Source: a virus (Duplodnaviria; Heunggongvirae; Uroviricota; Caudoviricetes). Taken from it: DNA of 11,814 bases. Below are positions 1,795 to 9,649 of the stretch, in pieces (position 1 is the first letter of the stretch; the number at the start of each line of letters is the position of its first letter). Under the pieces are notes generated by a model. It worked only from the letters and a program-made list of their open reading frames with translations. It was not told where the DNA came from and did no database searches. The stretch is from IMG/VR virus record IMGVR_UViG_2579778952_000005, positions 1-11,814 of that record. The stretch is one strand, 5' to 3'. The position numbers were made by a program, and so were the translations under genes.

Positions 1795-2261
1795 CAGATA
1801 TCCGTATCGCTGCTCAACTGCACCAACCCCTTTTGGGTTGTGGTGGCATCCATTGTTCTTATGCTGTCGAAAATCTTCTTTACACTTTCTGCATATTCGG
1901 CTGCCGCTTCCGCATTCGCCCTGGCGTGAGACACCAGTTCCTCAAGGTGGATTATCACTTCAGGCCTGGCATTCTGCTCAGTGAATTTCAGTAAAAAATC
2001 ATTCAGCGCCCCAGGCTGAGAATCTTCGTAAACGGTGATGTCCCCTATATTCGATGGTGGATAACCATCAACCAACAGGGTGACGCTGTACTGTCCATAC
2101 TCAACGTCCATACTGTAACGCCCGGTTTCATCCGATCTGACTGAAGCTACAGTACTTGCCAGCACCGTGGTGCTGTGACGCCTTGCCGTCAGCTGAATGA
2201 TGCCATTCTGTATTGGTTTACCTGCACCGTCTTTCAGCACACCTGAAATCTTTACTGCCAT
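1794..2261 (-). CDS. stf: Side tail fibre N-terminal (tail-attachment) domain, 155 aa
   Basis: MAVKISGVLKDGAGKPIQNGIIQL...GRYSMDVEYGQYSVTLLVDGYPPS...ITVYEDSQPG closely matches the N-terminal domain of E. coli prophage side tail fibres (StfR type) as recalled. ATG at 2261 is preceded by GGGGAG. The ORF-track start at 2267 is a GTG two codons upstream. Confidence 0.8.
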   Translation of the reverse strand: MAVKISGVLKDGAGKPIQNGIIQLTARRHSTTVLASTVASVRSDETGRYSMDVEYGQYSVTLLVDGYPPSNIGDITVYEDSQPGALNDFLLKFTEQNARPEVIIHLEELVSHARANAEAAAEYAESVKKIFDSIRTMDATTTQKGLVQLSSDTDI

Positions 2262-2272
2262 ATTCACTCCCC

Positions 2273-2303
2273 AAACAAAAAAGGCACCATTTCTGGTGCC
2301 CTT
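2273..2303 (-). terminator. Rho-independent terminator between J and stf
   Basis: On the minus strand: stem GGCACC (2300-2295), loop AGAAAT, stem GGTGCC (2288-2283), followed by a T-rich run TTTTTTGTTT, immediately after the J stop codon. Confidence 0.6.
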
Positions 2304-2319
2304 ATCCAGGTTATAAAAT

Positions 2320-5300
2320 TCAACTGATACTGATACCTGCTGTTGATTTCTTCATCACCACAACCAGTAAATCGCTGATACTTGCTGTGGGATACCAGCC
2401 ATTTACCAGCCAGGCTGACACAGAAAATTCCAGCCTCATGTGACCGTGACCGGCAGGCATATCAATAACGCCACTGTAAATCAGCGTATTATCCAGCGCA
2501 GTACGGTTATAAATTTCAGCACCGTTTTTCCGCACTATCAGACGGCATGAGGAGTAAATATCAGTATGATTTCGCTCATGCTTAGCGCCGCTGAATGCCA
2601 CCGCCGGAATAACAATCTGTCGGTCAAACGGCTGATCGTCATAAATCCTGACGGTAATGGTCCCTGATGGCCACCGTTCCGGTGCACGGGAGTCCCGGGG
2701 GAAAGCTTTACCCACTGTTTTAACGAGATCGCCTTCAATCTGGTTCGCGGACAGTTTTCCCAGAACCCGGCAGTTCTTGTTAATCGTGACGTTGTTGAGC
2801 GTCCCGGCGTTCGCATTCACGTTACCGCTGATATCCGCATTTCTCGCCGTCAGTCGCCCGTCCGGTGTCAGGGAAAATGCCGGAGGATTGCCACCACTGG
2901 TAATGGTGGGGGCCGTCAGGCGTTTCAGGAACACGTCATTCATGAATATCTGATCACCCTGCGCCACAAACATCGGCGTTTCATTTCCGTTTGCCGGGTC
3001 AATAAACGCGATACGGTTAGCGGCAACCAGGAACTGGCTCAGTTTGCCTTCCTCCGTATCCTCCATGCTGAGGCCAAGCCCCGCGACATAATGTTTGCCG
3101 TCTTTGGTCTGCTCAATTTTGACGCCCCACATGGCATTCCATTTATCGTTGGCGTCCTTCCACTCTTTCGAAAACTCCTCCAGTTTGCTGGCGTTATCTT
3201 CCGTCAGCTCAAAGTTTTCCAGCAGTTCCTTGCCGAGATGCGTTTTATTGATCAACCCTTTATAAAAATTCAGATAACCTTCCGCATCATCGCTCGCCCG
3301 ACCAACGGCCTCCACAAATGCCGATTTACCAACGGTGTTCACGCTGCGGATATAAAAGTAATAATCATAACCCGGCTTAATATTGCTACTGGCGGCTATC
3401 CAGTACAGCGCCGTACCAAGATAACGCGCGCTGGTTTCAACCTGCCTGATATCGATAATCCGCTTTTCCGAGAACCAGAACTCAAACTGCACCGTCGGGT
3501 CATATACAGCCAGTTTCGGGACCGCTGTTATCTGAAAATACCCTGGTATCAGTTCAATAGTGACAGGCGCTGCCGGTGCCGCAATCCGGAACGATACCGA
3601 TGCCGGATCGCCCTGCTGCCCCCACGCATTTACCGCCCGGACCGTCAGCGTGTAACGCCCCAGCGCCAGTTGCCTGAAGCGGTATGTGGTTTCCGTCGTC
3701 CGGGCCGTGCTGACCAGCCGCTCACTGCCGTCATCCGCTGCCACGGTCAGGCGAAGCATAAAGCTCACGCCCTTCACCACCTTCGGTGTGTCCCATCGCG
3801 CCAGCACCTGATATTCCCCGCTGTCTGCAGTGACTTCTGCGGTCAGGTGCTGCACCGCTGGCGGCGTGACACCATTCACCGTGCCACTCTGTTCGCCGTC
3901 AAAGTGCGCCCCGTTATCCACGATGGCCTCTTTTTCCGGCACATGCTGCACGGCGGTGATGGCATACGTGCCGTCGTCGTTCTCACGGATACTCACGCAG
4001 CGGAACAGTCGCTGGCGCAGCGTCGGCAGCTTCAGCCCCCATACGCTGTATTCAGCAACACCGTCAGGAACACGGCTCACTTTTACCTTCACGCCGTCGG
4101 TGACGGACTGAACCTCCACGCTGACCGGATTGCCACTTCCGTCAACCAGGCTTATCAGCGTGGTACCGGAGGATGGCAGCGTGATTTCACGGTCGAGCGT
4201 CAGCGTCCGGGTCTGGCTGTTCACCGCCAGCACACGACCACCGGTGCTGATACCGGCATAGTCATCATCACAGATTTCAATAACATCGCCCGGTACATGG
4301 CGAAGCCCTTCTGCGCCGACGCTGAAATCCACGGTCTGCGTTTCCAGCAGTTCTGTTTTAATCAGCCACAGCCCGGCGCGGTGTGCCTGCCCCCGACTGG
4401 TACAGCCAAAGGCATCCATCTTCGTGACGTTACGACCGTAACGGGCAATGGCCTGCGTGTCCTCCACAAGCTCTGTCGCCGTCTCCCAGCCGTTATCCGG
4501 GTCAATCCAGTTCACCTCAACGGCATTATGGCGGTCCTTCAGGGCGCTGAAGCTGTAGCGGAACGGCGCGCCATCATCCGGCATCACCACATTACTGCGG
4601 TTATAGGTCCACACCTTATCTGATGGTCGGTCCTGCACGAACGTCAGCGTCTGCCCGTTCCATACCGGCATACAGCGCATCGCCGAGCAAAAATCACTGA
4701 GCACATCCCACGCCTTGCGCTGTGTGGTCAGGTACGCATTACAGGTAATGCGCGGCTCCGTGCCGCCAAAGCCATCCGGCACTGACTGGTCGCAATTCTG
4801 GCCGATGACATACAGCGCCCATTTATCCACATCCGCTGCACCAAGACGTTTCCCCATGCCGTAGCGCGGATGGGTCAGCATATCCCACAGACACCAGGCC
4901 ATGTTGTTGCTGTATGCCGGTTTAAACGTTCCGTCCCAGATACCGCTGTATTGTCGCGTCTGCGGGTTATAGTTCGACGGCACCTGCAGAATGCGCCCGC
5001 GCAGATGATAATTACGGCTCACCTGCTGGCTGCCGAACTGCTCCGAATCCACCTGCACGCCGACCAGTGCCGTGTTCGGGTAGCACTGTTTCACATCGAT
5101 GATTTCGGTGTATGACGACCAGAGCGTTTTGTTCTGCAGCTGGTCTGTGGTGCTGTCCGGCGTCATCCTGCGCATCCGGATATTAAACGGGCGCGGCGGC
5201 AGGTTACCCACCACCACCGAGGCCAGATACTGCGAGGTGGTTTTGCCTTTAATGGTGATGTCTTTTTCCGTCACCCAGCCACCGTTACGCTGTATCTGAA

Positions 5301-5715
5301 CCAGCAGGCGGACTTCCGATGGATTCCTGTCCCCCTTTGAGGTGGTTTCCACCAGTGCCTGCACACCGAAGGTAAAACGCAGACGGTCGATGTTTGCCGA
5401 CGTGATGGTCCGGGTGATCGGCGTATCATATTTCACTTCCGTACCCAGCACCGTCTCGGAGCCGGAGGATTCAAACCCCTCCGGCGGTGACTGCTCCTGC
5501 TCACCGGCCCGGAACACCACCGTGACGCCGGATATATTGGTATTCCCCTCACTGTCCAGCACCGGCGTACTGTTCAGCAGCACGCTTTTTAATCCATCCA
5601 CCGGACCTTCAACCGGCCCTTCGCTGATGGCATCGATCACACTCAGCAACTGCGTGGACTTCAGGTTGTCCTTCGCTTCGCGCGGGGTATGCCCCTTACT
5701 GCTGCCTTTACCCAT
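2320..5715 (-). CDS. J: Tail tip host-specificity protein J (central tail fibre), intact, 1131 aa
   Basis: 1131-aa ORF, within one residue of lambda gpJ length, lying directly downstream of I as in lambda. Identity rests on length and synteny; the sequence match to lambda J was not checked. Confidence 0.93.
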
Positions 5716-5775
5716 TCGTCATGCTCCATAAACGACAAAACCGCCCGGAGGCGGTTTCACATAAAATATTTTGCA

Positions 5776-6447
5776 TCATCGACCAATCACCACAACCTGA
5801 CCACCATCCCCTTCGTCTGCCGTGCTGATCTCCTGAGAAATCACGCGTGACCCCACGCGCATTTCACCGTACAGAACGGGCAGAACATTGCCCTGGGCAA
5901 CCATGTTATCCAGTGAGGAGAAATACGTGTTCTGCTTACCGTTATCCGTTGTCTGTGTACGGGGAGTTCTGGCTTTCGGTGCCAGCATCTGCGCCACACC
6001 ACCGAGCACCATACTGGCACCGAGAGAAAACAGGATGCCGGTCATACCACCGGCCCCAATGGCTGCCCCCCATGCTGCAAGGGTGGCTCCGGCGGTAAAG
6101 AATGATCCGGCAATGGCGGCTGCTCCCAGGACAATCTGGAATACACCACCTGACTTGGCCCCGGCGACTCTGGGAACAATATGAATCACAGCGCCATCAG
6201 GCAGAGTCTCATGTAACTGCGCCGTTAATCTGGACGTGCTGACGTCCCGCCCGGCAATCCGTACCTGATACCAGCCGTCGCTCAGTTTCTGACGAAACGC
6301 CGGGAGCTGTGTGGCCAGCGCCCGGATGGCTTCAGCCCCCGTTTTCACACGAAGGTCGATGCGGCGGCCAAATCGTTGCAAATCCCCGTAAAGGCAGATG
6401 CGTGCCATTCCCGGTGACGCCAGAGGGAGTGTGTGCGTCGCTGCCAT
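5776..6447 (-). CDS. I: Tail assembly protein I
   Basis: 223-aa ORF, the same length as lambda gpI, with a Gly/Ala-rich hydrophobic C-terminal half. Its start lies 103 nt inside the 3' end of K, the same out-of-frame overlap as in lambda. Confidence 0.92.
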   Translation of the reverse strand: MAATHTLPLASPGMARICLYGDLQRFGRRIDLRVKTGAEAIRALATQLPAFRQKLSDGWYQVRIAGRDVSTSRLTAQLHETLPDGAVIHIVPRVAGAKSGGVFQIVLGAAAIAGSFFTAGATLAAWGAAIGAGGMTGILFSLGASMVLGGVAQMLAPKARTPRTQTTDNGKQNTYFSSLDNMVAQGNVLPVLYGEMRVGSRVISQEISTADEGDGGQVVVIGR

Positions 6448-7088
6448 TTGTCGGTATACCTCTCTCGTTTACTCAGTTGTTCAGGAATATGGTGCAGCAG
6501 CTCGCCATCACCACAGTAAATGGCGGCATGATTCGGCACCGATGAACCAAAGCAGCACAGCAGCACGTCGCCAGGCTGCGCCTCTGTCAGTGCGACACGG
6601 TAAAAACCAGTCGCCTCCATATTGTCAAGATAGAGATTCTGACCGTTACGCCACCAGTCATCCCCGCGATGAAAATCCGGCATCTCAATCCCCGCCAGAT
6701 GATAAGCATCCCGGAACAGCGTGTAACAGTCCGTCACCCCGTGCTCAAAGCGACGCCCGGTGAGATGCGGCACACAGCGGAACTTGTGAATCGCCCCCCG
6801 GCAGACCAGCCACCACGGCAAATCACTCTGCACCTGCAGCCGCCGGTCAGCATCACTCAGCCAGGGCAGACCTCCGGGGTGGCTGTGGACCAGCGCCACA
6901 ATCTCACCCTGCATTTCTGCCTGCAGCCAGTCTTCCGGCGACATACGGAAATACGCCTCCGGCTCACCGGAGATATTCACGCAGGGAAAATATCTTTCCC
7001 CCTCCGGCGTGCTTACCACGAAGCCGCACGACTCCGCTGGCGCACATCGCCGGGCGTGCGCCAGAATCGCTGATTCTGTCTCTGTCAT
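6345..7088 (-). CDS. K: Tail assembly protein K (JAB/MPN plus NlpC/P60 domains)
   Basis: Contains a JAMM-type motif HSHPGGLPWLSDAD and an NlpC/P60-like Cys/His region (GVTDCYTLF, PNHAAIY). Start chosen at ATG 7088 (MTETES...). The ORF-track start at 7163 is a GTG overlapping L. The classical 199-aa lambda K would start at the internal M at 6944. Confidence 0.85.
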   Translation of the reverse strand: MTETESAILAHARRCAPAESCGFVVSTPEGERYFPCVNISGEPEAYFRMSPEDWLQAEMQGEIVALVHSHPGGLPWLSDADRRLQVQSDLPWWLVCRGAIHKFRCVPHLTGRRFEHGVTDCYTLFRDAYHLAGIEMPDFHRGDDWWRNGQNLYLDNMEATGFYRVALTEAQPGDVLLCCFGSSVPNHAAIYCGDGELLHHIPEQLSKRERYTDKWQRRTHSLWRHREWHASAFTGICNDLAAASTFV

Positions 7089-7092
7089 GGGA

Positions 7093-7716
7093 TTACTGCG
7101 AAAGTTTGTTAATGGAAAGGAAGCCGCCAAAGTTGCCGACGTTATTGCGAAACTTACAGCCACTCAGGCATTTGCTGCATTTATCTTTCGTGATATCGGA
7201 CGTCGGCTGGTCATATTCATCCGCGACAGCCGGACCGCTATAACCGCACTCGTCACCGCGATAGGTCCAGGTGCAGGTGTTGGCCAGCATGATACGTCCC
7301 GGAAAAACAGCGCCATCCGTTTCCGTCGGCGTGGACAGTACAAAGGAGGCACTCACCGCGCTCAGTTCGCTGCACTGCTCAATGCGCCAGCGGCTGATCA
7401 CCTCCTGCTCCGGATCGGCGTCACTGTTTCCGTTGACGAAGTTCACCGCATCCAGAAAACAGGCGTAAACCTTACGCCGGACCACCGTTCCGCCGACCAG
7501 ACTCTGCAGATCTTCCGCCATCCCGGTGACCATACCGTACAGGTTAGAAACCGTCAGCGTGGGGCGCGTACTGGTGCCTTTGCCATTCAGTTCAAAACCA
7601 CTCCCCTGAATGGGATACGGCTGATACTGTCGCCCCTGCCAGGTGACCGGCTCACCTTTTTCGTTCTGCTCATTACAGAAAAAATAACGTTCTCCACCGA
7701 CCTCTGTCAGGTCGAT
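7093..7716 (-). pseudogene. L: Tail tip protein L, 5'-truncated (lacks about the first 25 codons and its start)
   Basis: Frame reads [37 protein letters not shown]...MVTGMAEDLQSLVGG...CSKCLSGCKFRNNVGNFGGFLSINKLSQ, matching lambda gpL from about residue 26 to the end, including the C-terminal Cys cluster. Upstream, the frame hits TAA at 7726-7728 inside V-derived sequence. First ATG is at 7533. Confidence 0.85.
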
Positions 7717-8200
7717 TTGCCGCTGTTACCGTGCTGCGATCTTCTGCCATCGACGGACGGCCCACATTGGTGACTTTCACCGTGCGGGTGATCACTTCCT
7801 TCGCCGTCACCGCCTTACCGATACTGCTGACCCAGCCACGGAACACATCGACCGTGCCGTTCGGGAAGCGGATTTTATAGGCACGGGTATCGCCTTCATT
7901 AAACCACGCCAGCAGCGCCTGCTGCCCCTGCTCTCCGGGCATCCACGCCAGCGTGAAGCTGGTATCTCCGGCAGATTTCTGCCCCTGCCCGGTCGCAGTC
8001 CAGTCTGCATCTTCATCATCGAGATAGCTGTCGTCATAGGACTCAGCGGTCAGTTCGCCGGGCGTCAGGTCTTTAACTTTTGCCAGACGCGACCAGTCAA
8101 CGTCTGAAAGCGGATTCGCATAAGGGTCACCGCTCCCCTTATAAACCCACAGGGTGGTCCCGGCACCTTTCACCGGCATTGTAGGATTTGGTACAGGCAT
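7673..8200 (-). pseudogene. V: Major tail protein V, 3'-truncated (residues 1 to about 161, then 14 out-of-frame codons)
   Basis: [45 protein letters not shown]...RSTVTAA matches lambda gpV as recalled. After codon 7720-7718 the sequence becomes L-derived and the frame ends [18 protein letters not shown]. ATG at 8200 is preceded by GAGGA and lies 7 nt after the U stop. Confidence 0.85.
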
Positions 8201-8207
8201 AGCGTCC

Positions 8208-8603
8208 TCACATTTCATAGGTAATGACATAAGTCATATCGGCTGAACTCCACAGGCCCGCATCATCGTCGCGCCGGTAGTCATAGCCACTGACCACCAT
8301 ACTGGTGATCAAATCTGACAGTGCCGGGATATCGCTCATCACCGGATAAATCCGGGACTCCATCCACGCATCCAGCTCTGAATTCGGCACCTGAGCAGGC
8401 AGGAAAACTTCGATATGCAGCTCCGCCTGCCAGGTATCGCTGTCCAGCTCTTCGCCCGTGTATTCAGCGCCGGTGAGATAAACGGCAACTGCCGGAAAAT
8501 CCGCCTCATCAAAAACAGCGGGGCGACCATCAAAAAACGTCGCCCCGGTGTCATGCTTCTCCAGTGCATCCAGTACGGCTGCACGGAGTTCAGTATGTTT
8601 CAT
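8208..8603 (-). CDS. U: Tail terminator protein U
   Basis: 131-aa [53 protein letters not shown]... matches lambda gpU at the same length. Its ATG overlaps the upstream stop in an ATGA arrangement, as for Z-U in lambda. Confidence 0.93.
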
Positions 8604-9649
8604 CGCTTTATTACCATCCTCAGTTGATGCTGCAGCGCATAGCCCAGCTCTTTCGGAAGACGTTCACGCCGTATCCGCTCAATATTCTGTTTAAACGCCG
8701 TGGTCAGCGGCACCGCCATCGGGATTTTCACCACATCAATGGGGTAACGGTTTTTCCCGGCCACACGCTGCATAACATGCCACCGGCCGTTTTTCAGTTG
8801 CTGAATAAACGCGCCGGGAATACGACGGTTACCCACCACAAGCACGCTGCCGCCACCTTTCAGGGATGAACGCTGCCCCTTTTTACGACGCCTGCGGCGG
8901 GACAGGACAACCCGCGCATTACCCAGCTTGATTACGGGCAAATCCCCCCGGTTAACTTTGATTCTGGCCTGCGGATTTTTGACCGTGGCCCTTTTCAGCC
9001 TGGCCCTTTCCTTTACCAGTTTCCGGCGTACCTTTGTCTCACGGGCAACCTGTGACGCAGACTGCGATATCGCGGATGAAGCAACGCGGTTATCCTCATC
9101 AAAGGCAGCAAGTTCATCATAACCCGCCACATCCACTGACTTTTCACGGTAGTTTTTTGCCGCTTTACCGCCCAGGCACCAGAAGCCACGCCCATTGGTG
9201 AAACGCTTCATGGTGAGCGTGTTATCCCGGTGCTTTTTGCCATACCACGGGGCCAGCGCCAGCAGCGACGGAATATCACGAATAGTCGGCTCAACGTGGG
9301 TTTTCATAAAGTTCTCGGCATCACCATCCGTCGGCAACCAGATAAGGGTGTTGCGCTGCTTATGCTCTATGAAGTAGGCATAAACACCCAGCAGCATTTT
9401 GGAATAACCAACACGGGCAGACTTCACCACATTCACCTCGCGGATGTAGTCACTGCCCATCGCATTCATGATGGCCCGCTGAAAGGGCAGTGTTTCCCAG
9501 CGCCCTTCCTGGTATGCGGATTCTTTCGGGAGATAGTAACTGGCATCCGCCCATTCAACGGCAGTCTGTGGCTCCGGCCTGAACAGGGCTCGCAGCCCGG
9601 CGCGTACATCACGCCGCAGAATATCAATCTGACTGTTCGATATATTCAC
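8600..9649 (-). pseudogene. In-frame fusion: terminase large subunit A N-terminus (about 185 aa) joined to tail completion protein Z C-terminus (about 163 aa)
   Basis: Residues 1-185 (MNISNSQ...VVKSARVGYSK Walker A...DVAGYDELAAFDE) match the lambda gpA N-terminus. Residues 187-349 (NRVASSAISQSASQVARETKV...LRMVIKR) match lambda gpZ from about residue 30 to its C-terminus. GTG start at 9649 overlaps the Nu1 3' end by 26 nt, as in lambda. Confidence 0.85.

Follow-up and report, generated by a model that had tools for sequence, protein, structure and literature searches.

The window, the whole 11,814-nt stretch of DNA that was analysed, carries the late genes of a lambda-like prophage remnant in Escherichia coli. 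It is a complete 11.8-kb draft contig whose ends lie in repeats, with IS1 at one end. All genes and sites described below lie on the minus strand; no strand was assigned to the IS1 end.

Gene content of the window

The contig starts inside a copy of IS1 (1–373) whose terminal inverted repeat ends at position 373 and which gave a 97.6% match to the annotated IS1 copies in L003. It has inserted into the distal side-tail-fibre gene (374–1473) about 28 nt short of the 3' end, cutting off the last codons. The product of this gene is 375 aa long in E400634, and at the matching place in L001 it is annotated by PGAP as 'phage tail protein' (WP_185183300.1). The IS1 insertion is missing from all three complete genomes that contain the same remnant. 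A 102-aa open reading frame (1486–1794), annotated as hypothetical protein WP_032303078.1, lies downstream of a deletion in the side-tail-fibre gene stf, and is followed by the N-terminal fragment of stf itself (1794–2261), which matched the Pfam family phage_tail_N with an E-value of 1.8e-53 and is annotated by PGAP as a pseudogene. A terminator-like hairpin with a T run (2280–2303) is positioned 17 nt past the stop codon of J. It has 10 pairs, 5 of them G-C, and was picked out by a consensus scan, as a match to the pattern alone.

On the other side of the J, I and K genes the window contains a series of truncated and complete genes. The minor tail protein fragment 'L (7093–7717) retains the last 208 of 232 codons with no stop or frameshift and is annotated by PGAP as a pseudogene 'missing N-terminus'. 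It is joined out of frame, at approximately position 7717, to V' (7718–8200), in which the tail tube gene is reduced to its first 161 codons out of 246. U, the tail terminator (8208–8603; 131 aa), is intact and differs by a D74N substitution private to the window. Of the 192 codons of Z the last 163 remain ('Z, 8600–9092), and they form an in-frame fusion with A' (9093–9649), the first 186 of the 641 codons of the large terminase, with the junction at 9091/9092. The small terminase gene Nu1 (9624–10169; 181 aa) is intact and matched Pfam Phage_Nu1 with an E-value of 2.6e-90. J, I and K are thus not the only complete morphogenesis genes, since Nu1 and U are intact too.

Upstream of Nu1 a cos-like site (10310–10358) could be read from the sequence. 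The exact lambda cosN 12-mer was searched for and not found; the site has a variant 12-mer, after which the sequence is the same as on the right side of lambda cos. Retained upstream is a gene resembling Q, assigned to DUF1133 and giving a faint match to Phage_antitermQ. Scanning the window for promoters gave six promoter-like matches against 9.2 expected, and because there was no enrichment an internal promoter before K is unsupported.

The tail tip genes J, I and K

J, the tip attachment and host specificity protein, is encoded at 2320–5715 by 1131 codons, full length and with no stop. When compared with the solved lambda J chain (8iyk_J) using phmmer, residues 1–1130 aligned on residues 1–1131 with an E-value of 0. 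All the domains of lambda J are present, six Pfam J domains scoring above their cut-offs: FNIII-A, Phage-tail_3, two Ig domains, Tail_Tip and the C-terminal receptor-binding domain. End-to-end homology and the full domain series identify it as a lambda gpJ. The tail tip assembly protein I (5776–6447; 223 aa) is also full length, and its residues 1–223 aligned with the 223-aa lambda gpI chain 8iyk_I (E = 3.7e-140), which places it with lambda gpI. K, a second tail tip assembly protein (6345–7088; 247 aa), is full length with JAB/MPN and NlpC/P60 domains, and the matches to Prok-JAB (E = 2.9e-13) and NLPC_P60 (E = 1.7e-12) predict membership of lambda gpK. The K protein (WP_032303081.1) is identical to K of the intact prophage in E200139, and it aligned without gaps to K of phages 2G7b and lambda. 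The start of I lies 103 nt inside K, so that the two genes overlap at 6345–6447; the overlap is equally 103 nt in lambda (K 14276–14875, I 14773–15444, OM418627). The first-pass annotation had read this region as a 1131-aa J without internal stops together with intact I and K genes with a lambda-like overlap, and the reading frames, domains and alignments bear this out.

Comparison with the lambda tail-tip complex of gpJ, gpI, gpK and gpL (8IYK, 8K35, 8XCG) gave end-to-end alignment for J and I, and the same two-domain composition and overlap length for K. J diverges from lambda h434 in its C-terminal receptor-binding part, and dN/dS over the whole of J is 0.30. In contrast to the lambda complex, L is truncated in the window and none of M, H, V, G and T is present in full, so that neither a tip complex nor a tube would be expected from this element alone.

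Integration site and deletions

The remnant is a 29-kb (29.1 kb) element in the potB/potC interval, with int and xis adjoining potC. Host genes lie on either side and both the phage integrase and excisionase genes are present, as in a prophage integrated at its attachment site. E200139 has an intact 46-kb prophage at this site, and the remnant corresponds to that prophage less four deletions flanked by microhomology. The deletions total 17,252 bp, in agreement with potB–potC spans of 46.3 and 29.1 kb.

Three of the four junctions lie in the window. Relative to the intact relative L002, the A–Z deletion has removed 6.8 kb including W, B, C, D, E, FI and FII (6,788 bp, from the rest of A through the start of Z), and the V–L deletion 4.1 kb comprising G, T, H and M (4,102 bp). 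The third (1.4 kb) lies in the side-tail-fibre gene, with its junction at approximately 1801–1804 and 1,392 bp absent compared with E200139. The junction microhomologies are TA for A–Z, 2–5 bp (approximately TT..CC) for V–L and TCCG for stf. The fourth deletion, of 5.0 kb, lies outside the window and has removed the repressor, cro and replication genes.

The element therefore has the gene losses of a defective prophage: W, B, C, D, E, FI, FII, G, T, H and M are absent, A, Z, V and L are truncated, and the repressor, cro and replication genes are gone. The first-pass annotation had proposed that the head and tail-tube modules were deleted, and the A'-'Z and V'-'L scars confirm this against the intact relative. 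With the portal, capsid, tape-measure and tube genes missing, the remnant is predicted to make no infectious particles. An F-type tailocin (a lambda-tail-like bacteriocin) was also considered and rejected, as V and L are truncated and G, T, H and M deleted.

Intact relatives

An intact Z-U-V-G-T-H-M-L-K-I-J-stf module was found on JAGFHP010000057.1 (L018), which encodes a 1131-aa J protein identical to that of the window. Over the 4,769 bp of J, I and K the two differ at one position, which is synonymous, and over 1801–7717 they differ at two sites. The intact prophage of E200139 (NZ_CM128604.1) encodes I and K proteins identical to those of the window and shows no differences over 4439–7344. 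In the early and regulatory regions E200139 and the remnant have 10 differences in 13.5 kb (99.9% identity). The two elements have integration site and gene order in common and are 99.9% identical across the early/regulatory and lysis regions, whereas the window element has 17.25 kb less, in four blocks, and one IS1 more. The prophages are near-identical although the chromosomal flanks diverge by 1–3%. Other parts are less similar, the Nu1/A' segment of the window being 91% identical to E200139 and the V'-U-'Z segment 98%, which indicates mosaic ancestry. J of the remnant lineage differs from E200139 J in a patchy, recombination-like manner.

Distribution of the remnant

Of 5,426 complete E. 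coli genomes, exactly 3 carried each of the three in-window junctions. All three belong to one clone, with no SNPs over 17 kb of chromosomal flank, and their chromosomes, with base-identical junctions, originate from Kenya, India and Bangladesh. The junctions recurred on approximately 20 contigs, draft or metagenomic, in assemblies made independently (NCBI, ENA and Logan).

Across about 14 copies of the remnant J shows a single substitution, the nonsynonymous D337N, and no stops or frameshifts, and no inactivating change in J, I or K was seen in the roughly 14–21 copies sampled. Patches of substitutions distinguish the copies in K/'L and in the endolysin gene. A short K of 199 aa on the metagenome contig L020 was explained by an alternative start call and a substitution patch, and is not a truncation.

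That the deletions are recent, one of two alternatives raised by the first-pass annotation, is strongly supported by the identity of J in L018, by the 99.9%-identical intact prophage and by the confinement of the junctions to one clone.

Neutral decay and retention

The first-pass annotation had regarded full-length J, I and K genes as notable in an element that cannot make particles. Under neutrality 3.2–3.3% of substitutions would be nonsense, and at the observed divergence about 0.14–0.39 disrupting events are expected, giving a probability of intactness of about 0.68–0.87. The divergence is approximately 2e-4, and approximately 3e-3 would be needed before intactness becomes informative. 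The dead fragments A', 'Z, V' and 'L (~718 codons) also have no stop or indel relative to intact orthologues. When three random deletions of the observed sizes were simulated, K-I-J itself was spared in 2.6% of trials, while some equally long run of complete genes survived in approximately 30%. With fewer than 0.4 disruptions expected, dead fragments equally clean and survival of a comparable run this frequent, the premise that intactness is notable is not supported.

The substitution patterns suggested as a check were compared by the Nei-Gojobori method against 11 orthologues. The dN/dS values were low (0.03–0.3), and this reflects the history of the phage and not selection after the deletions: nearly all of the divergence predates the deletions or arrived through recombination patches, and on the post-deletion branch, with a single nonsynonymous J substitution among approximately 14 copies, the measure has no power. 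Inactivated variants of the same remnant were sought using the exact J protein and the A'-'Z fusion protein, and none was found; since diversity is this low, neutrality predicts the same outcome and the absence carries no meaning. A count of gene 'places' across the 5,426 genomes was tried as a test of retention bias and rejected, as it is confounded by query length and sequence diversity.

Independent remnants have not kept J. The Qin-like remnant (L014) has the Nu1-A'-'Z-U' arrangement with K, I and J gone, and the remnant in strain H3 has kept the head genes and lost J, T, H and M.

Discussion

The intact J, I and K genes very probably belong to a lambda-like prophage, confined to one clone, that decayed too recently for its remaining genes to have degraded. 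A 46-kb lambda-like phage would have integrated at potB/potC in a single E. coli lineage, and four illegitimate, microhomology-mediated deletions would then have grounded the prophage and reduced it to 29 kb, removing the immunity and replication region (5.0 kb), A to Z (6.8 kb), V to L (4.1 kb) and part of stf (1.4 kb). The IS1 insertion was probably gained afterwards in the strain of the window. K, I and J would be the largest block that the deletions missed by chance, and their full length would follow from the near-absence of point mutations since the element was an active phage. Loss of the head, tail-tube and control genes this recently makes full-length J, I and K ordinary. The three genes are most likely silent passengers: the repressor/cro region is gone, and the early promoters on which the Q-like antiterminator depends were presumably lost with it. 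The block could still take part in homologous exchange, giving sequence to related prophages and incoming lambdoid phages or receiving it from them, and selection for its retention would not be needed for this.

It is unlikely that K-I-J have instead been kept by selection, either as a reservoir of host range or for proteins supplied in trans to a lambdoid phage whose Q activates the late operon. Temperate phages do take up DNA from defective prophages through homologous recombination, at 2e-6 to approximately 1e-4 per phage according to the degree of homology (De Paepe et al., 2014, PMC3945230), and over more than 4 kb the K-I-J block shares 94–95% identity with isolated lambdoid phages. The patchy, recombination-like differences between J and its E200139 counterpart, the patches in K/'L and endolysin among the copies, the retained Q-like DUF1133 gene, the 2.6% of simulated trials in which K-I-J specifically was spared and the statement, in a review citing Bobay et al. 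(2014), that lambdoid remnants conserve tail regions more than cargo genes (PMC6379469) point the same way. However, there is no signal of selection after the deletions, the only clade changes in the morphogenesis genes, J D337N and U D74N, are both nonsynonymous, and the dead fragments are as intact as K-I-J. The repressor/cro region, where the early promoters lie, was deleted together with the repressor, two of the three complete genomes have no other K-I-J-like locus able to use the proteins, and the independent remnants L014 and H3 have lost J. A donor role profits phages and not the host, which would have no obvious selective advantage from it. Selection for retention is not required to explain the intact genes. 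A related suggestion, quite improbable in our estimate, is that, when lambdoid prophages are grounded, loss of K-I-J might proceed at a slower rate than that of head and tube genes, the block acting as a standing donor of host-range sequence or as a tail tip supplied in trans. The remnant would then be an early snapshot of biased decay, not a random survivor, and the recipients would be incoming phages with matching Q and late-operon control.

Retention of int, xis, a cos-like site, Nu1 and K-I-J in a compact 29 kb is also what might be seen in a PICI-like satellite that rides in helper particles and redirects their host range with its own tail tip. We consider this very improbable, since the element equals an ordinary intact prophage, at 99.9% identity, minus four random-looking deletions; it is a strict subset of that prophage and restricted to one clone. 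Replication, repressor and interference genes are absent, and truncated fragments of A, Z, V and L would be unexpected in a streamlined satellite. The window being a draft contig with repeat ends (IS1), the deletions might have been artefacts of short-read assembly in a prophage that is truly intact. This has next to no probability and is refuted by base-identical junctions in three complete chromosomes and 21 contigs of independent assemblies.

The recently grounded prophage resembles the cryptic K-12 prophages Qin, Rac and DLP12, lambdoid elements that have likewise been grounded, with parts of their interior deleted and morphogenesis genes cut short. Qin has a Nu1-A'-'Z-U' arrangement resembling that of the window through an independent A–Z deletion; unlike the window remnant it has, as in L014, no K, I or J and has kept stf/tfa remnants alone. 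Rac and DLP12 are not known to carry K, I or J either, and all three K-12 prophages are much older and widely shared. The window remnant, in contrast, is clone-specific and essentially undiverged from active phage.

Cryptic K-12 prophages are known to donate DNA to infecting lambda (PMC3945230). Selective retention of K-I-J, if it occurred, would have implications for the part that cryptic prophages play in supplying the host-range evolution of temperate phages, a supply to phage evolution already shown experimentally for other prophage regions in the same work. As it stands the remnant, from a single human-gut E. coli clone that has spread globally, illustrates the very early decay of a prophage in textbook fashion. 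PGAP annotates it as such, its discovery value is small, and intact reading frames in such elements are uninformative on selection. The remnant also provides a dated example, in which four deletions of 1.4–6.8 kb arose alongside merely ~0.05% point divergence; deletion, and not point mutation, thus drives the early grounding of a prophage.

Anatomy of the remnant prophage

The window is the whole of draft contig JMGQ01000081.1 of E. coli assembly GCA_000687125.1 (locus L019), and every gene of interest lies on its minus strand. The order of the late operon was taken from Pfam matches and from the PGAP annotation of a near-identical stretch in three complete genomes. An intact Nu1 (9624–10169) is followed by the first 186 codons of A (A', 9093–9649) fused in frame to the last 163 codons of Z ('Z, 8600–9092), an intact U (8208–8603), the first 161 codons of V (V', 7718–8200), the last 208 codons of L ('L, 7093–7717), full-length K (6345–7088), I (5776–6447) and J (2320–5715), a truncated N-terminal fragment of stf (1794–2261), a 102-aa ORF (1486–1794) and a distal tail-fibre gene (374–1473) interrupted by IS1, the end of which occupies 1–373. 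The contig starts within this IS1 copy, which is inserted about 28 nt short of the 3' end of the tail-fibre gene; the same remnant lacks the insertion in all three complete genomes, so it is an extra, strain-specific step of decay. A strong terminator-like hairpin (10 pairs and a T run), predicted by pattern, is placed between J and the stf fragment at 2280–2303 on the minus strand, 17 nt 3' of the J stop.

The 1131 codons of J are free of stops, and residues 1–1130 align with residues 1–1131 of the solved lambda J chain. Because residues 1–223 of I align with the 223-aa lambda gpI chain, the long form of I, starting 103 nt within K, is the real one; lambda (K, 14276–14875; I, 14773–15444) has exactly the same arrangement, with I beginning 103 nt inside K. 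The K protein contains JAB and NlpC/P60 domains and is identical to K of an intact prophage. The alignments and domains thus bear out the first-pass annotation of full-length J, I and K with a lambda-like K/I overlap, with the refinement that Nu1 and U are also intact and that the element has a third deletion (stf), the IS1 and, beyond the window, a fourth deletion.

In its entirety the remnant is a prophage of 29.1 kb lying between potB and potC; it is present in strains E400634 (Kenya), E500002 (India) and E600003 (Bangladesh). In E200139 (Mali) this site is occupied by a prophage of 46.3 kb whose gene complement is complete, with genes for early functions and control (int, xis, exo, dicB, repressor, cro, ydaT, replication genes, a Q-like gene and lysis genes) and for morphogenesis (Nu1, A, W, B, C, D, E, FI, FII, Z, U, V, G, T, H, M, L, K, I, J, full stf and tfa). 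Alignment revealed that the remnant is the E200139 prophage less four blocks, of 1,392 bp in stf (junction microhomology TCCG), 4,102 bp from V to L (2–5 bp), 6,788 bp from A to Z (TA) and 4,970 bp in the immunity/replication region (about 5 bp), which together make up the 17,252-bp difference in size. Microhomologies this short are the hallmark of illegitimate recombination. The V–L junction is out of frame. By chance the A–Z junction preserves the frame, and the resulting chimeric ORF of 349 aa (8600–9649, minus strand), in which the N-terminal portion of the terminase ATPase domain precedes the C-terminal portion of Z, is called as a normal protein by gene callers. The 4,970-bp deletion lies outside the window (13022–17991 of E200139 locus L013; junction at 35990–35994 of E400634 locus L001) and removed the repressor, cro, ydaT, the replication genes and DUF977, so that dicB now adjoins DUF4406. 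This loss is probably what grounded the prophage. As a defective lambdoid prophage the element is ordinary and young, and it had already been annotated.

Age and ancestry of the deletions

Each of the three junctions in the window was present in exactly 3 of the 5,426 complete E. coli genomes, and these three showed 0 differences over about 17 kb of chromosomal flank, identifying them as one tight clone. Among further draft and metagenome contigs the A'-'Z protein, a handy marker unique to the remnant, was found on 21 and the exact J protein on 13. Only one substitution, D337N in J, was observed in J-I-K among about 14 aligned copies, and it is common to E600003 and GCA_029998895.1. The most telling evidence comes from contig JAGFHP010000057.1, which carries an intact Z-U-V-G-T-H-M-L-K-I-J-stf module with a J protein exactly as in the window; the two differ at 2 sites over 1801–7717, one of them, synonymous, within the 4,769 bp of J-I-K. 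The E200139 prophage has 0 differences from window 4439–7344 (I, K, most of 'L and the first 425 codons of J) and differs at 10 of 13,471 sites in the early and lysis regions, even though the chromosomal flanks differ by 1–3%. Near-identity to these intact modules indicates that the remnant descends from a phage that was active and transmissible and from which it has diverged by at most about 0.05%. The earlier proposal of recent deletions is well supported by this near-identity and by the narrow clonal distribution.

Intactness and selection

Nonsense changes make up 3.2–3.3% of the possible substitutions in J, I and K. At the observed divergence of 2–3.4 × 10−4, and on our own assumption that indels occur at 10–20% of the substitution rate, 0.14–0.39 disrupting events are expected and the probability of remaining intact is 0.68–0.87; intactness would become notable above a neutral divergence of roughly 0.3%. 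As an internal control, A', 'Z, V' and 'L, about 718 non-functional codons, were compared with intact orthologues and contained no stop or indel. When three deletions of the observed sizes were placed at random within the 22.7-kb morphogenesis region, K-I-J specifically was spared in 2.6% of trials and a stretch of complete genes no shorter than this one remained in 30%; the latter is the fair figure, because any such surviving block would have been flagged. Full length had at first been considered remarkable; with dead fragments equally clean and these probabilities, that premise is not supported.

Ratios of dN/dS were calculated by the Nei–Gojobori method against 11 orthologues from intact prophages, phage 2G7b and lambda h434. 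Values were 0.03–0.11 for J (0.30 against the J of h434, whose receptor domain differs), 0.06–0.11 for I and 0.13–0.34 for K. The substitution-pattern comparison proposed at the first pass gave low values, which reflect the purifying selection expected from time spent in phages; as to the period after the deletions, the morphogenesis genes offered just two changes, both nonsynonymous: D337N in J and D74N in U, the second of them in the window's strain. The latter (window 8384, codon 74, G-to-A on the coding strand) is private to that strain, codon 74 being D in all other remnant copies and intact relatives. Relaxed selection accounts for the two changes better than an omega of about 0.07 would, but so small a number of events proves nothing. 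The suggestion that J, I and K are kept for another reason is unnecessary for this clone.

Independent remnants have different contents. A Qin-type element (L014) retains Nu1-A'-'Z-U' through a different A–Z deletion and lacks K, I and J altogether. In strain H3 the head genes are complete, T, H and M are missing, I is joined to lom and J is gone; the surviving genes therefore vary between remnants. DNA resembling K-I-J is ubiquitous, 4,269 of the 5,426 genomes having one or more places that cover at least 80% of it, and K-I-J is 93–95% identical to isolated lambdoid phages. Tail regions are described as relatively conserved in lambdoid remnants by a review that draws on Bobay et al. 2014 (PMC6379469), and biased retention keeps a small probability.

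Mosaicism and possible exchange

Of 31 differences between E200139 and the window in J, all but one fall in two patches, 2923–2986 and 3733–4438, a mosaic pattern that points to intragenic recombination between related prophages. Two metagenome copies (L020 and L027), matched to window 6852–7252, are identical except for patches of 6–19 substitutions in the N-terminal part of K and the C-terminal part of 'L, which arose either by recombination with a different prophage or through chimeric assembly of the metagenome. Just past the right end of the window, at the 5' end of the endolysin gene (30451–30580 of locus L004), E500002 and E600003 have six differences in 130 bp, despite chromosomal flanks identical over 17 kb. 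The 9–16 differences among the three clone members are all confined to the prophage, suggesting that other prophages have been sources of gene conversion.

The Nu1/A' segment (window 9091–10025) is only 90.9% identical to E200139 (33017–33951 of locus L002) and 96.3% identical to strain 1506, whereas identity in neighbouring segments is 98–99.9%; the parent phage therefore had a packaging end that differed in origin from the rest. Upstream of Nu1, a cos-like site at about 10310–10358 (minus strand) consists of the variant 12-mer GGGCGGAAGGCG, in place of the lambda 12-mer GGGCGGCGACCT, followed by CGCGGGTTTTCGCTATTTATGAAAATTTTCCGG. Alignment gave no match to window 10026–10312, the cos-like stretch, in the otherwise near-identical E200139 prophage.

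Whereas the element's structure, its junctions and its near-identity to active relatives are shown by the sequences, its behaviour is inferred. The repressor/cro region has gone, presumably together with the early promoters, which would leave the Q-like gene (DUF1133) with nothing obvious to drive it, and for this reason the late operon holding K, I and J is probably silent. Promoter-like sites in the window were not in excess (6 compared with 9.2 expected). The block is still a long tract of homology to other lambdoid elements and can swap sequence with them, as demonstrated experimentally by De Paepe et al. for the defective prophages Qin, Rac and DLP12 (PMC3945230). The patches in J, K/'L and the endolysin gene suggest the same kind of exchange. 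The block may thus be a donor of tail-tip sequence as a by-product, and no selection for its retention needs to be invoked.
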